Below are positions 125 through 22,722 of a DNA stretch of 64,000 nucleotides, one piece after another. Each line of letters begins with the position of its first letter. Positions within the stretch are counted from its first letter, which is position 1. Source of the stretch: Camelus ferus. Lineage: Eukaryota. The DNA lies in the NCBI RefSeq assembly GCF_009834535.1, contig NC_045696.1, positions 81,904,001-81,968,000 of the forward strand, written 5' to 3'. The position numbers and the translations under genes were made by a program. The notes below the pieces were generated by a model that ran no database searches, was not told where the DNA came from, and saw only the letters and a program-made list of their open reading frames with translations.

Positions 125-419
125 CTGTAATTTAAAGAATCACAATACAATTTTTACTTTACTTCCATCATGTTAAAATTTTCAAGTCAGGAAAGAACAG
201 GACAGAAAAAATCTAAAATTCCACTGTCATATCAATTCTACATAGAAGTAATTATCTAGAAAAATTATTTTCTCTAAAGATTTAAAAGTATATTAATCTT
301 TCTGATGAACGTAAAACTGAATAATCTTAAATACATTTGCAGCATGTTATCATGACTTTTCTTAAGAATACGCAGAAGTATCTTTTCACAATGGACTATT
401 ATTTAGATAACAATTTTAC

Positions 420-662
420 CATCTGAAGTTGTTGCTTCTTCTGTAAAATTGAGTTCAGTTTTTCCTGTTGTTTTACGTAAGTTTTCATTACTTCCTCCAT
501 GATTTTTCCCTTATCATCCTCACAAATGACATCTTTGACAAGAACTGGAGGATGAAGCTACAGCATCATGGTCAGCTCCCACCTTGCTTGTGTCCCTGGT
601 TGAGTTGCAGGTAGTAGACTCAGGTTTCTTTTTACTTGTAGAATTACTCGAAACTGATGGAT
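420..662 (-). CDS. SKIL: SKIL exon 5 (243 nt), with an apparent +1 frameshift near 549-551
   Basis: Acceptor ctcaaag|AT and donor ATG|gtaaaa. The 5' half reads (D)[37 protein letters not shown]; the 3' half [40 protein letters not shown] is in a different frame. Confidence 0.9.
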
Positions 663-723
663 CTTTGAGAGGCAAAAATGAAGTAAGAGTATTAATATCA
701 CTCTGTTAAAAAGTAACTTGAAC

Positions 724-2795
724 AATCCATAAATGAAATTAAGACGATAACCCCACTTACAAATAAAATAAAAGATAATAAAATACTTACGAATGAATTT
801 AACAAAAGAGTATAAAACATGTACAATGAAAACTATAAAACATCATTTAAAGAAATAAAAGACTAAAAAATGGAAAGGCATCCCATGTTTGTGGATTGGA
901 AGACTTAATATTGTTAAGATGCTATCATGATCTGAATGTCAGTGACTTTCAAAATTCACATGTTGAAATCGTAACCCCCAATGTGATGGTTTAGGAGGTG
1001 GGGCCTTTGGGAGGTAATTAGGTCACAAGGGTCATAAGAGCCCCCATCATGGGATTTATGACCTTAAAAAGAGATTTCAGAGAGCTCTACCATTTAACCA
1101 CGCAGAAGACAGTGAAAAGACAGCCATCTATGAACCAGGTAGCAGGTCCTTGCCAGACCAAATCTGTTGGTGCCTTGATCTTGGACTTCCCAGCCTCTAG
1201 ACTGTGAAAAATAAATGTTTGTGGTGTCAGCCACTCAGTCTATGGTATTTTTGTTATAGCAGCCCAAAGGGACAATGATAAATGGTAAAACACCCCCAAA
1301 CTGATCTATGTTTTTAGTGCAATCTCTATCAAAATCCCAACTGGCTTCATGGCAGAAATAGACAAGCTGATTCTAAAACTCATATGGAAATAAAAGGAAG
1401 CCAAAATAGCCAAAACAATCTTGAAAAAGAACAATAAAGTTGGAGGACTCACAATCTCCAATTTGAAAGCTCATTACAAAGCTACAGAAATCAAAACTGT
1501 GTGCAGTACTGGCATAAGGATTGAGTCCAGAAATAAACTCATACTTTTATGGGCAACTGGTTTTCAACAATGGTGCCAAGACAGTTCAATTGGGAAAGAG
1601 AAGTCTTTTCAACAGTGTTGGGACAACTGTACCTATATACAGAGAATGAGGTTCATACCTTACATAAAAATTAACTCAAAATGGATCACAGACTTAAATG
1701 TAAGAGCCAAAACTCTTAACTGTAAATCTTTGTAAGCTTGGACTAGGCAATGGTTTCTTAGACATGACACCTAAAGTAAGCAACCAAAGAAAAACTAAAC
1801 TGGACTCCATCAGAATCTAAAACTTTTGTTCTTCAAAGGACACTAACAAGGAAGTGAAAAGGCAATTGACAGAATGGCATATTATGTAGATAAGGGTCTA
1901 GTACCCAGAATGAATAAAGAACTCCTATAACTCAATAGTAAAGAGACAAATAACCCTACTTAAAAATAGGCACAAGATCTCAATAGGCACTTTTCCAAAG
2001 ATTTGAAATGTTCAATAAAAGCATGAAAAGATACTCATTATCATTAGTCACTGGAGAATTGCAAATCAAAACTATGAGATACCACTTAACAACTACTAGA
2101 ATGGCTATAATCAAAGACAAACAATAACAAGTGTTGGCAAAAATGTGCAGAAATTAGAATCCTGAGAAGCTGCTGGTAGAAATGAAAATGGTGCAACAGC
2201 TTTGGAAAATAGTCTGGCAGTCCCTTAAGACATTAAACATAGAGTTACCATATGATCTAGCAATTCCACTCCTAAATACATACCCAAGAGAAATGAAAAC
2301 CTATGTCCACATTAAACTTGCACATAAGTCTTCAAAACAGCATTAGTCATAACAGCTGAAAAGTGTACATCCAAATGTCCATCAACTGATGAATGGATAA
2401 ACAAAATGTAGTATATCCATCCATACATTAGAATGTTATTAAGCCATAAAAAGGGAAGAATTACTAACACATGCTAAAACATGGACTGAGAAAACACTAT
2501 GTTTAGTGCAAGAAGCTAGACAAAAGGCCACATGTTGTATGATCTCTCTTACAAGAAATGTCCAAAACAGACAAACCCACAAAAACAGAAAATGTATTAG
2601 TGGTTGACAGAGGCTAGTGGAAAAGGGAGAATGGAGAATAACTTCTACTGGATTACAGGTTTTCTTTTGTGGGTGATGAAATGTTCTGAAACCAAACGTT
2701 GTGATCATTGCATACCTCTGTGAATTTACTAAAAACCACTGAATTGTACACTCTAAAAGGGTAAGTTTTATGGTATATGAATTATATCAACAATT
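724..2795 (+). mobile_element. Old LINE-1 (L1M/L1MB-like) ORF2 3' part plus 3' UTR, interrupted by an LTR, in SKIL intron 4
   Basis: Degenerate ORF2 peptides ([34 protein letters not shown]) and a typical L1M 3' end (ccactgaattgtacac...gaattatatc). Confidence 0.88.
920..1280 (+). mobile_element. MaLR solo LTR (MLT1A-like) nested in the L1
   Basis: tgctat start, ggaggtggggcctttgggaggtaattagg, ccttgatcttggacttcccagcct, aataaa, ttgttatagcagccc end. Confidence 0.85.
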
Positions 2796-3743: not shown

Positions 3744-3976
3744 CTAAGTGACTATATGATTCTCTATTTGTTTTTAAATCCATTTTCTCCTGTTCCTCCA
3801 GTGAGACATCTGGATACGACACTGTTTTTTGATGTTTCCCACTACTGTGTGGCTTCTCTGACTGTCTTGGTATGGATCTGCTTGCCTCTGTCTTTGCAAC
3901 CTCTTTAGGCTGGGATGCAGCAGAAGTAAGCGACACATTTGGGGCGACCACTTTATCACACATGTATAAGTAGTAG
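3744..3976 (-). CDS. SKIL: SKIL exon 4 (233 nt)
   Basis: Acceptor ttttcag|C, donor TTAG|gtaagt; translates [26 protein letters not shown]...[17 protein letters not shown]; phases fit exons 3 and 5. Confidence 0.95.
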
Positions 3977-5494
3977 CTGAAAACAAAGAATGGCAAAGTA
4001 AGATACATATTACATTTAGGTAAAAAGCAAAATATATTACATCTATTTCTACGGTTAAACTTTTTTTTTTTACCAAAAGAGACAACATAACAACCCAGAA
4101 AATAAGGGTCACAGAAAAGAATTCTTGAAAAAGTTAGTAGTTGAGGCAGAAAGAACACAAGTTATTAGGATATTTTTGTTGTTTTACAAAAAGTAATTTC
4201 TGAGCACTAAGAAGATACTCTCTGGAAAAGAAAATCAGTCTCTTCTCTTTCCCTCAAAACCATATGAGAACGAAAACCATGAAGTATCTTTACAGAGTGA
4301 TTCAACAGCCCTGAGTAGGTAAGGTTTATGCCAAAAAGAAAACAGACCATATACTACTTTGGAGGACTATTTCCTCGTCCGCCCCCCTCCAAAGCAAGGC
4401 AGTCCTGTTCTTTGTGATGGTGAGGCTGATTCAGTCCCACACTGCATGGCTATGGCCTGATTCACCGCAGCCCCAGTGAGGAGCTCCCAGGGCCCTTCTT
4501 AGATAGCTTAGGGAAAGAACTAGCATTCTGAATGCTGTCCAGCTACTGGGCAGTCCTCCGTGGATCAAACCCCACAGAGCAATCTTCTGAAAACACTGTG
4601 GTATTGCCTACTTACTTGATAAAACAGCAATAATAAGTTGTGCAAAACTAAGATCAAAGGGTAACTACCCATTTTGCTCACAGCTCACATAAAATTGTTC
4701 AGGAAATTATGTGAGAGACTCATGGAACAAATTTGAGCTAGACATGTAAATACCATTTTACTAACTATAATCTGCTTATCCTTTAGCCAAAAGACGCAAT
4801 CATTTAACTGACCTAACACTTCATTCTCTGAACTCTAAATAATCTCCTCTTATATCACATTTTCTTTGTACAGGACATCTGTATTTTTCCTCTCTACTAA
4901 TCACATGAATTCTGAGGATGAAAACTCAGTATTCTGCTAAGAAAACTGACAAGCTTAATACTGCCCAAAGACTTACTTCAAACACAACAGGACTAGAAGG
5001 AACTGTAAGACTGAGATTCATCATCACTGTGCTTGGGGAGAATATACATGTACAGCAGCAGATTAAAAATTTAGGTTCAATAAATTAAAAGTTTATAATC
5101 CATGGTATATTTTTATTGAAAATATGAAAATTTATTTTGAGGGGTATTGTTACTATGAAAACTTCTAAGTTTCAAAAAAGTTTCTTTTTAAAATATCAAA
5201 GTTGTACACCACACTCTTGAAGAGTTGGTTTATCTCTTGAAGGGAAGTAAGGAAATTAAAAGAAAACTTTCATTTTTTTCACTTTGGGGCAAAAAGGAAA
5301 TGATCCATTTTTTAGAAAAACATAGAAACACACAGAAAAGGTTATTTCAAATATGCAACACAATTTATAATTCATTTCATTGATTAGAAAGAAAGCCTAA
5401 AAATATATAATAAATTCCCAGGACCTAGAATAGTACCTGATGTATAGAGGTTGAACGAACGAATGAATGAATGAATGAGCCAATACCCACTCAC

Positions 5495-5592
5495 CTGGGG
5501 TGTAAAAATGAATGTGTCTGAGAAACATGGTCACCTTCCTGCTTTATAACAGGATACCAAGAGTGTAATTCCATTCCTGGTGGTGTATCTAT
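5495..5592 (-). CDS. SKIL: SKIL exon 3 (98 nt)
   Basis: Acceptor ctacag|ATA, donor CCCAG|gtgagt; translates [32 protein letters not shown], including the IKQE SUMO consensus. Confidence 0.95.
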
Positions 5593-16435: not shown

Positions 16436-16621
16436 ACACAGGAAAGCATTTTATACCCTAAAATGTATAACACAAACATATTACATATATCAATATTTTT
16501 GTTGTTGCATGAGCAGCAAGATTCTTAACACACAGCTTAAGTTGCATTCTAACAGACTTGATTTCAAGGTAAACCATAACCATTATTCAAAATTACTATT
16601 AAAAAATAAAATAAAACTTGC

Positions 16622-17719
16622 CTTGGACTGAGTTCTCTTCCCATTTCTCATGCTAAACTTCTCCTTCATTTCTTCTAAAATTATCTTCAGTTTCTTTTCT
16701 TCAGGTGTCCCTAAGTATTTTTGGTTCACATGAAGATAGCAATGCCATTTGGCTGATTCAAAGCCCCAGTGGCAAGTCCTTTTGTCGGGTGATCTGTGAG
16801 AATGCATCACAAATGTCTGGGGTGCAAACATTCCACAGCACTCCAGACACTGAATACATGGAGAATCAGGCTGAACATAAAACTGGGGTGCAAATAAACC
16901 CTGACATTTGCCCAAGCATTCATGTTCCACTTCAAAGGCACTGCCAGTTTCCTTTAACTGGGCCAATGAGTTTTTAGCAGGAAGTATACTACCGTTTTGA
17001 GGGAAAGTGCGTGGCCGCAATAAAGCATTACATAGTCTTTGTGCATCAGTTAATGTGATCAGCCCACAGGATGGGGCATTGAATGGAAGTATTCCCAGGA
17101 CCTTTAAGATATGAAGCTGGTCTGATGTACACCTTGAACAATAGATGTACAATTCATCACACACTGTATTTATTTGCTGGAGTGAAAATTCTCGGAGAAC
17201 AGAATTTAAGACTTGGGGCAAACAGAGTCTCTTTTCTCCTCCAACCTGAAAACAGGAAATAGACTCCCCTTCCAACACAGTCTGGGTGAGTTCTGTGGAG
17301 CTATCAGAAGGGATGAGCAGTGGACCAGGAAGAACCTGAGGAGATGGAAGAGGCAGAAATACAGTAGGTGACATGCTTTCTTGGGAATACCGAGCAGAAA
17401 ATGCGGCTGGTCCACCCAGAGAACTCTGACTACTTAAATGGAACTGTGCCAAAGTGTGTTTCAAACTGGGATTTAAATGTAAAGGTTCAGGCACAGAGGC
17501 ACAGGTTCGCTTGACATGCTCTTCATCAGTTTCCATTGGCGCTTCATAGTCATCCAAGTGTTCCTTCTTTACTGTTGGCATCTTGTTTATCATCATTTTT
17601 CCATTTGCATGAATGTCCGTCATCATTTTTTTCACTGGAGGGCTGCCATCATCTCCCATTCCATTCAGTTTTTTATTTGAGCCCTGAACCAAGGGAAAAT
17701 TTGTTTGTAGGTTTTCCAT
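16622..17719 (-). CDS. SKIL: SKIL exon 2 coding part (366 codons): Ski/Sno homology and Smad4-binding SAND-like domains
   Basis: [11 protein letters not shown]...GKRTQSK is recognisably SnoN: VKKE SUMO motif, HTLAQFHL R-Smad-binding region, D-box RLCLPQVLN, Cys/His zinc-binding region. ATG in good Kozak context (gcaATGG). Ends at non-canonical donor AAG|gcaagt. Confidence 0.98.
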
Positions 17720-18378
17720 TGCTAAAAAAACTACTGGTTTAAATAAGGAAGTCTGAGATTTGCATTGTTATTTAGTTGCTTATCTGAAGAGAGAAAAGCA
17801 ATGTATACCAATACTTATGGTAACTTACTCTCACAGAAAATTTAAGTTTCCAGAGAGATTGCCCTAAACTACTCAATAGATTTTGCAACTTTGTTTTGGT
17901 TCTGCTTATACTGTAGTGTAATTTCACTGCAGGTACTATAAAATTTCTTACTTTATGTTTAATAATAAAGAAAATAATTTTAAAAGGCACACCTCCAAGG
18001 AAGCCTTTATTTCTAATTCTTCAGATATATGTATTAAAATAAAGTTACCAATTCTCTCAATTCAAGACGTCCAGGTTCAACGCAATGGTTTGGTTTGGTT
18101 TTAAGCACAACACGCAAAAAGTCTATGCAATTACTTGTGTCAAAATAATGCACTCAAATTTAATTTTTGGCACCAAGGACACCAAAGGTGGGGGGGGGTA
18201 TCTTCTCCAAAAATGATGATCTGTTGGTCTGTGTGGACAAACTGAAGACTTGTATAAATCTTCACACCAGCAAGAAGAGCCTCTGACTCTACTTGAACGT
18301 CTACAATTAAAAATGAAATCTAAAGAAAAATTGTCCAGTTATCTTCAAGGATTACTGTTAATTCTTCTTTTAATTAAT
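17720..18378 (-). other. SKIL: SKIL exon 2 5' UTR portion (659 nt)
   Basis: Strong acceptor with long pyrimidine tract (ctctccccccaacccctcttctcttccag|ATTAATT) at 18379/18378; the region is almost devoid of ATG. Confidence 0.75.
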
Positions 18379-19988
18379 CTGGAAGAGAAGAGGGGTTGGG
18401 GGGAGAGTTACATTTGAATTTGCTCCAGAGGCCAAAGGGTCAGTTTGAAACTAGTTTCTTAATCTTAAACTGAGTTCACTTCACCAAAGGTGACACTTGA
18501 GTGATTTCTTTAAATCTAACAGTTAACTAGAAGAATCTTCATTTAAATACGAAAGCAATTTGAAATGGGTAAAGGGAACAATAATATCCCTCAAAAGGGT
18601 GAGGACTATTCCAACTCGGAACAGGAAGAACCTCAAGCAGAACATCTCACCCAAAATTCAGTACTACAGGCTTTCTCAGTTATGGCTTTTTAACTAAAAC
18701 AATCTATTACTTCATCTCTTAATTAAAAAAAACACCAGTTTCTTCCAAAAAAAAGAGATACTAGTTAACATATCTACCATATGTAACTAAATTACAATCT
18801 TAAGTGTATAATTCCTCTAGTCAGAGTATGCTATTTTTCCGGAATGACTGTAGGCAAAAATTAACCTTCCCTTTAAAAGGTTAGAGAATTTGCTTAATGG
18901 AAGCCAAAAGCTATAGACTCCACTCCTGGGAATCTCCATCCTTGAACAAGACTAATCCGGGACAAAAACCACAAGGCAGACAGACCTCACAAAGAATGCA
19001 AATGGAGGAAAAGGGAAAAAGAAAAGATTCTTCTTCCACTTCCTTCTACAGAGAAAATCCAAAAGAAATTCAATAAATAGAAACGTATGCCTCCCAAACT
19101 CCGAGAAATTTACCTTAAAACAGACAAAAAGGGTTAAGGGCCAAGGCCACTAGCCAACGTACTGACTTTCGCCCACCACAGGAACACCTCAGCCAACGCA
19201 GGCCAAGGAAGAGGGCAGAAGGCATGACCTAGAATGGGGGAGCCCCCAAACCGTGAAATCCTCGGCCCACACAAAGCCACTCACCCATTTCATACTCCAG
19301 GGGGAGGCGGAGAGTGGAGGGCAAGGGAACAGTCCCGCCTTGGGGTATGCAAGGTGGCAGTGGGAAGTGGAGGAAGAGGAGTCCCCCAACCCCCACCTGC
19401 GGTCTCGGAACACCCCAGTGCCCTCCCAACATCGCCCCACTGAGGGGGCCGCGAGGAGGACTGTGGAAATCCCCCGCGCACCCTCTCCCCGGGAAGTTTC
19501 GGGTGTTACCCCAGCACCCCTAAGTCTGCGCCTCCCCTCGCCTGCCCAGGGCCAGAGGCAGAGGGGTCAGCGCGCGGGTGGGGCGCGGAGCCGGGATCCC
19601 CGCGCCGCCGGGCGCCGGCCGACCCGATCCAGCCCGGGGCATCCCTGCGGAGCGCAGACGGGCGGCGGGGGGAGGGGGGCGGTGACCGGCGTCCGGGTCT
19701 CCGGGGTCCCGACGGCTCTGGTCAAGTGCAGCGCCCTGCCCCTGCCCGCGTCCACCGTCCGGGATGGGCGAAGCATTATCTGCCGTGGGACACCCGCCCC
19801 GCGCCACCCCATGGCCCCGACCCCACCCGGGACCCGCGCATCCGGACCCCCGACTCCGGCCTCCAAGCCCGAGGAAGCCCGAGGAGCTTTGTTAACTCCC
19901 CACTACCCTCCGACGCCGCCGTCGGGCACCCCAGGGGCCGCGCGCCCCTTGCCTCCCGCCGCGTCACCCCCGCGAGCCGGGGCCGCAC

Positions 19989-20260
19989 CTGTGCCCGCCG
20001 CCGCCGCCGCCGCTCGCTCGCTCCCCTCGGCTGTGCCGGCGCCGCTCCGAACCCCACACACATCGCTACACACAGCCCTCTGACGTCACCGAGCCCTCGG
20101 CCCGCCCACGTCACTGCGGAGACACACGGCTTCCCGCAGACGCCGCCGCCGTCTCCGGCCGCCCGGGGGAGAGCGAGGGCGGCGGGGGGGAGGGGAGGGG
20201 AACCGAGCCAGCAGAGACACCGTGCGCGCGCCCTCGCCGCCGCCGCCGCCGCCGCCTCGC
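19989..20260 (-). other. SKIL: Putative SKIL non-coding exon 1 (5' end approximate)
   Basis: Donor GGCACAG|gtgcgg at 19989/19988 inside the CpG island; GGC-repeat-rich leader. TSS cannot be fixed from sequence. Confidence 0.55.
20236..20256 (+). repeat. (GCC)7 trinucleotide repeat; a second (GCC)5 lies at 19997-20011
   Basis: Read directly from the sequence. Confidence 0.9.
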
Positions 20261-22722
20261 GGCTTCTTGCCCCTCGAGGACGCGTGTGCCGTCTGGCCTA
20301 TTGTGGCTCCGGAGGGCACCCCCGGCCAGTCGTCTGGCGCGCGCGCGCCCCTCCCCCCAGGCGCGCGCCCGGCGCTCCTGGCCCCGCGCGCCGTCTGGGC
20401 GGCTGGCGCGCGGCGCTGTCTGCGGTGCGCCCGGCGCAGACAGGATGTTCCCTCCCCGCCCCACCCCCACCGCCGCCCTCCCTCCTTCCTTCCTCGAGTC
20501 GCCCAGCCGGCTGTCTGGGGCCGCCACCGCCCCGCCCCCGTCCCACCCGCTGCTCGGTGGTGACGGGCCAGACCCGGGGGCGCCCTGGTCTCTCGGCTGC
20601 CGCGCGACACGGAGAGAGGGGGCAGGGCGGCCGCACGGTGCACTGTGCACGACCCCAGCAGCCGGCAGGGCGGAGGCAGGGCCCGCCTGGCGGAGCGCCG
20701 CCGCCCGAGGTCAGGCACGGGCGACCCTCCCCCAGCGCGGCCGCAGCTGGGCCGCCCCGCCCCGGAGGCAGCAGGGTGGCGGCCGCCCAGCCGCGCCCCC
20801 CCGTGTGGGCTCTGCGCGCGGGGGCTGCCCCCCGCCCCCGCGAGGCCTCCTGCGGAAGGGCCGCCCCGCCAGCTGCCTGCGCTGCGCTCCGCCCCACCCC
20901 GGCGGCCCCCGCCTGTCCTGGGTGGCCTCCGCCCAGACGCCTTCGCCAGGCTGACCTCCTTCTCCATCGGGCCGGGCCAAAGGACTGACCAAAGTTCCGG
21001 CAAAACCGAGAGACAACATTTTTGTCTCTACTTCTCAGCCTCCCTTCACCCCCACCCCCTCACCAGACTGCTCTCTCGGTTCCAAAAGGGACCTAGAAAT
21101 TACATGTTTCTACAGTGTTTACTGAAGGGTTTGGGGTTTTGTTTTGGAGGAGAACACGAGATGAGACTAGAAAAGCAACGACTTCAGAGCTTTGGGCTGT
21201 GACCCTGAGGGCCGAACAGAGTGGTGTCCTGGTCCGTGTTCCCAGGCTAGCCAATTAGCATATTGAACTCTGCCGAGCTGCTCCGTCATATTTCGAAACA
21301 CCAAGAAAAACCCCTTTTTTGCACCCCACCGCAAGATCAGGAACTGAAACAGTCCCCCAGGTCTCGGTGAACCGAATTCAGAAGACTCGAGCTTTGTCTC
21401 CTACCTTTTTTAATTTTTTTCTTTTTGCTCATTGTCGTCCAATTTCTCCTGGTTTTACTGCTTCAAGGTCACTCATGTGGGGTCCACATTTTGAGGCGGC
21501 CAACTGGGAATGCTCCTGTGCTCATAGGTTTCCCCACCCCCCCCGTTTTCCTCCCAACGGGCCTACCAGAAGATCAGAAGCCTCTTATTCCCTCCACTCC
21601 CAAGTTCCGTGCCTCACACCCCCATCGCCTTGCTCCCAGGTCGTGCCCCCTCTCCCACCCCCCACCACCTTCCCCTCCTTCTTGACTGCCTCCTTTCCAG
21701 AACATGAATAATTCCGCAGCACTTCCCATCTGTTATTGCCATAGAGACAGAAGCTCAGCAAAGATAATGATGTTCTGTGCAGAGCCAGTGGGGGGAGAAC
21801 AGCATCTGCGAGTCTGGGGAATAGATTTTCTAACCTCGAGGATATTCAGAAGGCCCGGCTGAAGGTCTGATGTGGAAGACGGGACAGTCCTGAGACTTGG
21901 CATCTGGTCAGCTCTCAGCACTTGGCTCCTGTCTAGCGAGAAAAAAAAAAGCAAACAATTTTTAGAAACCAAAATGACAGATTTTTTAAAAAGTGATTTC
22001 AAACTGCAGTTAATGGTACACGTTCAGTACTCATTTTATCAGCCATAAAAATTAATTACTTGCTAGCACATCCAAGGACCAAAAATCAATTGGACAGTAA
22101 ATAGACTTTTGAGAAATCAAACACATTTTCCCCTCCCCTGTTCTTTTGATTTGCTTTCTCCAGGAATCTGTTTTTTGAGGCGAGGATCTTTTGTGCTGGT
22201 GATTTTATGTACAATGGTTTGAGAAATAGCGACAGGCAAATGTGACTAGAACCAGTCAAGCTTTGAGGGTTTCTTTTTTTTTTTTTTTTTTTCTTTTTCT
22301 TTTTTCATTATTCATCAAAGTACAAAATGTACCAAATTAAAATTCACTTTGCCCTTGAATTCCCAAGGTCTTGGCCTCAAAGATACAGGTTTGAACTCAA
22401 GCGAAACTAAGCAGGGTACATTTACATAGATCTGATGTAGATGGGGAGGTGCACATTAACCCACATTTTTGCAGGTCTACTTAAGGATTTTTGGAAATTA
22501 TCAGTAAAATTGATTGTATAATATCAAACAAAAGCACTGAAAGAAATGATAATGGCTCTTTATCTCAGAAACAGAATTGAATGGACACAGAGAATACAGG
22601 CCTTAGAAAAAATAAACATGATGAGGTAATGAATATTGTAATCCCCACCTACTGATGGTCTTCATCAATGTTTAAAAGTCAGTGTGAAGTCAGTTTATGT
22701 ATTGGTTAGTAAATATTCTTAT

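Follow-up and report, generated by a model that had tools for sequence, protein, structure and literature searches.

A single surplus base breaks the SKIL (SnoN) reading frame in a camelid assembly and is probably a consensus error

The window analyzed here, a stretch of 64,000 nucleotides, holds on its minus strand the 5' five-sixths of the growth-control gene SKIL (SnoN). The orthologue seen here comes from a camelid-like artiodactyl and is intact save for a single surplus base, which lies in exon 5. The resulting frame break most probably reflects an error of assembly, or else a variant private to the animal sequenced, and not a species-wide loss of the gene; as a feature, it is most likely not biological. 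Between an error of the consensus and a real allele, the evidence leans to error.

The identity of the gene is apparent from an open frame at 16583-17767 (394 aa), which, out of 2471 candidates, matched 1156 proteins at E <= 0.001. The 120 matches listed, all mammalian, share 94-100% identity with the query; their sources mostly call them ski-like protein or SKI-like proto-oncogene, some have only the label 'hypothetical' or no name, and not one of the 120 bears another family name. A spliced model was fitted exactly to the 684-aa protein P0127, in window coordinates on the minus strand, with values of 0 or less falling in the locus just below the window (L002). The first coding exon (17719-16622, 1098 nt) opens with the ATG at 17719 and is followed by exon 3 (5592-5495, 98 nt), exon 4 (3976-3744, 233 nt), exon 5, which is the fourth coding exon (662-420, 243 nt) and carries the break, exon 6 (124 to -100, 225 nt, the first 124 nt inside the window and the rest below it) and exon 7 (-757 to -915, 159 nt), which ends in TAA. 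Exon 4 ends in phase 1, one base into a codon (CACTTAG followed by gtaagt), exon 5 lies between an AG at 664-663 and a GT at 419-418, and exon 6 starts in phase 0.

The first coding exon encodes residues 1-366, which are 100% identical to P0127 and hold both conserved domains of the family: the Ski/Sno/Dac Dachshund homology domain or DHD (PF02437; P0127 residues 127-234, E 4.5e-47) and the c-SKI SMAD4-binding domain (PF08782; residues 261-355, E 9.2e-40), as assigned with Pfam. The C-terminal dimerization region is likewise perfect in sequence but lies one base out of frame with the N-terminus. SKIL occurs in its own genome as one copy only, and neither a haplotig nor a retrocopy of it was found there for comparison.

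Some further features of the locus may be recorded here. The first coding intron has a GC donor (TCCAAG followed by gcaagt, at 16620-16621 on the minus strand) instead of GT and thus falls in the rare GC-AG class. A G+C-rich block at about 19000-21200 (G+C of 0.51 at 18-20 kb and 0.64 at 20-22 kb) has long spurious open frames on each strand and probably comprises the CpG-island promoter of SKIL together with its non-coding first exon. Within intron 4, the plus strand at 1394-1735 contains a 113-aa open frame (KEAKIAKTILKKNNKVGGLTISNLKAHYKATEIKTV...), which we take to resemble a fragment of L1 ORF2.

Between the phase 1 end of exon 4 and the phase 0 start of exon 6, only a length of 3n+2 nucleotides keeps exon 5 in frame. 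The original prediction held that its 243 nt violate this demand, and the spliced model bears this out. The entry frame runs as had been read, ...GCT TCA TCC TCC AGT TCT TGT CAA AGA TGT CAT TTG TGA, and meets the premature TGA at 522-520 (minus strand) after 514 normal and nine out-of-frame residues (SSSCQRCHL). In tblastn alignments with P0001 and P0127 as queries, the frame switch lies between 550 and 548, and identity is 100% on both sides, with 38/38 residues before the switch and 43/43 after it, up to the exon end. Within TCA TCC TCC AG on the minus strand, T549, C550 and C551 are the three candidates for the surplus base. As had been proposed, taking one base out at 549-551 restores the frame into exon 6: removal of any one of the three, singly, gives 684 aa in which every residue equals that of P0127. 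Removal of 546, 547, 548, 552 or 553 also restores the frame but alters one residue. The original codons were either TCT CCA or TCC CCA. Because the 170 codons after the break are open in the shifted frame and identical to those of the relative, the pattern is not a product of chance.

Read literally, the spliced coding sequence specifies 523 aa, with the stop at codon 524 and the C-terminal region lost, in agreement with the earlier count. From the TGA at 522-520 it is 100 nt to the exon 5/6 junction (exon end at 420), and a second junction follows further down. Nonsense-mediated decay is generally provoked by a stop that precedes an exon-exon junction by more than about 50-55 nt. By the position of its stop, the literal SKIL mRNA is a predicted target of this pathway, and the suggestion that the stop is sited for such decay thus stands.

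P0127 and P0001 are intact 684-aa SKIL proteins annotated on assemblies other than this one, and P0127 is the translation of this gene throughout, apart from the break. P0001 differs from the gene at four residues (P/A, P/T, A/T and K/R), all of them in exons 3-4 (3744-5592). An intact SKIL frame is thus present in, or was given to, other assemblies from this species or a sister species; the models of P0127 and P0001 could themselves have been frame-corrected by annotators. When residues 470-560 of P0127 were compared with proteins of length 30-375, there were 47 matches among 64 candidates, none of them at 100%; the best with at least 69% query cover reached 88-89%, and P0181 reached 93% over 33% of the query. 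With no 100% match among these short proteins, the camelid exon, intact or broken, is absent from that set. Neither a 523-aa nor a 645-aa member appears among the 15 listed of 114 cluster members, metagenome contigs scanned with two exact stretches adjoining the break gave 0 matches for each, and a search of the literature at hand for SKIL disruption in camelids found nothing.

A separate difference from other mammals concerns an isoform of 661 aa, common to many of them, that lacks 23 residues at the start of exon 5 (in P0163 the join runs ...YSRL to ARDTSK). The corresponding exon start at 593 (minus strand, 593-597) is preceded here by GG and not AG, while the AG at 597-596 leads into a frame with a stop. 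Judging from these nucleotides, this genome probably cannot make the 661-aa isoform.

The broken frame could in itself suggest that SKIL is an old unitary pseudogene decaying in this lineage, and beyond the break nothing speaks for such a history. An old pseudogene would be expected to show several disabling changes or relaxed constraint; one lesion was found in 2,056 coding bases. The remaining exons, among them the two that reach below the window, are intact, the splice sites of all five introns are usable, the natural stop TAA is kept, and every other residue equals that of the intact relative. With one lesion and no further decay, old pseudogenization is rejected and can be given next to no credence. 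The spliced model upholds the original prediction on both counts, namely that all remaining exons are intact and that the break is a very recent allele or a consensus error and not an old pseudogene.

Of these two, a small-indel error of the assembly consensus is the probable explanation. The extra base, its place and the perfect rest of the gene are observed; the error itself could, for example, have consisted in writing a C twice, turning TCT CCA into TCC TCC A. The base would then be absent from the DNA of the animal, which would make a normal 684-aa SnoN. This explanation is favored because the lesion is single and the product is identical to P0127 once the base is taken out, including 170 codons and the natural TAA, and because P0127 and P0001 from other assemblies are intact. 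When a conserved gene in a draft vertebrate assembly shows a single-base frameshift, the cause is far more often an error than a real variant, and truncating alleles of a conserved regulator are rare. The 84 kb examined contain zero N bases, which fits long-read contigs, and small indels are the usual residual error of such contigs. Two features of the site count against an error: residual consensus errors concentrate in long homopolymers, which this site is not, and the exon is unique, so that polishing with short reads should have put it right.

Public sequencing runs bear on the site indirectly. Sampling 47 words from window positions 300-800 and looking them up gave 24 listed runs, none of which (0/24) holds all 47. 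The best DNA-type run (organism A) holds 0.92 of the words; the share is 0.89 in eleven DNA-type runs from several studies on organisms B and C, and 0.87 and 0.85 in two more. By arithmetic, one single-base difference costs about 3 of the 47 words. Every run therefore appears to depart from the window in one or two spots, be it at the break or elsewhere, which argues against a fixed or common allele. An assembly error and a private allele of the assembled animal fit these shares equally well. Three RNA runs hold 0.36-0.38 of the words. The arithmetical expectation, with a noise of about 3 words, is about 0.45 for the full exon with the words spanning the break, about 0.39 for the full exon without them and about 0.20 for an exon of 125 nt. 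The RNA shares thus weakly favor a full exon without the extra base. Both the want of a listed run with all 47 words and RNA values of 0.36-0.38, as against about 0.45 for a fully matched exon, contribute to the preference for a consensus error.

Alternatively, the base may be a real 1-bp insertion that arose recently in the germline and is carried by the sequenced animal in heterozygous or homozygous state, which is possible though rather unlikely. The mRNA of such an allele would be a target of nonsense-mediated decay, and any protein made would be a 523-aa SnoN with the DHD and SMAD4-binding domain and without the C-terminal dimerization region. The base is, after all, present in the assembly, and the duplication of a single base beside an identical one is a common kind of real insertion. 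The freedom from other decay is as expected of a very young allele, and the fact that the whole stretch is in none of the listed public runs is as expected of a private one. Both domains (residues 127-234 and 261-355) precede the break, and naturally truncated isoforms that lack the C-terminus, SnoI and SnoA, exist (PMC5992185). Set against this, the base is seen in no independent data set, be it the public runs listed, the short proteins or the metagenome contigs, and SKIL is strongly conserved, at 94-100% identity among the 120 mammalian matches listed. In addition, one Skil knockout mouse line is embryonic lethal, and the knockout phenotypes reported range from embryonic lethality to viability with T-cell defects (PMC5992185). 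Strong conservation and a lethal knockout line together make it unlikely beforehand that a reference animal should carry a truncating allele.

The literature also indicates what a truncation at this point would remove: the C-terminus of SnoN is the domain for SnoN homodimers and Ski/SnoN heterodimers, which the natural isoforms SnoI (399 aa) and SnoA (415 aa) lack (PMC5992185). It is doubtful that the window presents a real camelid germline truncation of SKIL that removes this region and is perhaps partly rescued by an internal acceptor at 546-545, giving an in-frame protein 39 residues shorter.

Rescue of this kind belongs to a wider proposal, in which the base is real and tolerated through a bypass, either by splicing to an internal acceptor at 546-545 (or 534-533) or by a +1 ribosomal shift at TTG TGA G. 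The former would yield an in-frame SnoN short of about 39-43 residues and the latter would re-enter the normal frame at EDDKGK. Of the 13 AG dinucleotides between 664 and 534, two (546-545 and 534-533) give a stop-free exon of 3n+2 length. The hypothetical acceptor at 545..546 on the minus strand (cttcatcctccAG, followed by TT) would open a 125-nt exon that reads VLVKDV... in frame; 14 of the 20 bases before it are pyrimidines, compared with 15 of 20 at the normal acceptor, and its AG is formed by a camelid-specific Val codon, GTT, where other mammals have Leu, Phe or Ile. The RNA runs, however, stand at 0.36-0.38, near the value for the full exon and about twice that for an exon of 125 nt, and no 645-aa isoform occurs among the 120 matches listed. 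As for the +1 shift, it can be seen directly in the sequence that skipping the T of the TGA, at 522, leads back into the normal frame. The 86 nt from the stop onward, however, fold no better than shuffled sequences (z of -0.47; 52 of 200 shuffles equalled or exceeded their stability), so that no stimulatory RNA structure was found there, and other mammals read the exon in one frame, which means that there is no conserved recoding site. In other mammals, the genomic open frames that continue from this exon into the intron (P0138, P0141 and P0167) are indeed in a single frame, and the two-frame layout is hence not conserved; on this ground and that of the fold, programmed +1 frameshifting was rejected. 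Taken as a whole, a bypass of the break is very improbable.

Two other routes around the stop were dismissed. Skipping of exon 5 would put phase 1 directly against phase 0. Rescue from the donor side fails by reasoning, since the donor comes only after the TGA, which is inside the exon, and a change of donor would be useless.

What the break means depends on its origin. If it is the error that the evidence favors, the matter is one of annotation only: the gene model should be read through, and this species should not be credited with a 523-aa SnoN. A real break would amount to a truncating allele, naturally present in a livestock species, of a gene that regulates TGF-beta/SMAD signaling, and would be of modest interest for the biology of SnoN. 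As the position of the stop predicts nonsense-mediated decay, the main effect would be loss of the mRNA from that allele. A real and common allele would be of interest to breeders, and a real one with partial rescue by the internal acceptor would provide a natural large-animal model of SnoN hypomorphy. In either case, no open question is answered.

Among known systems, a close parallel is offered by the single-base frameshift artefacts of draft vertebrate assemblies, which annotation pipelines correct and flag as low-quality proteins. These share with the present case a single indel in an otherwise perfect, conserved, multi-exon coding sequence for which the proteins of relatives are intact; the SKIL site differs in not being a long homopolymer. 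The programmed +1 frameshift of the antizyme type also takes a +1 step at an in-frame TGA to re-enter the normal frame, but SKIL has neither the stimulatory structure nor the conserved two-frame layout, and nine conserved residues would be replaced. Human SnoI and SnoA, as described in PMC5992185, resemble the literal 523-aa product in keeping the N-terminal DHD and SMAD-binding regions and losing the C-terminal dimerization domain. They are made by alternative splicing and end earlier, whereas the product here would arise from a 1-nt insertion, carry nine foreign residues and stop where decay of the mRNA is expected.
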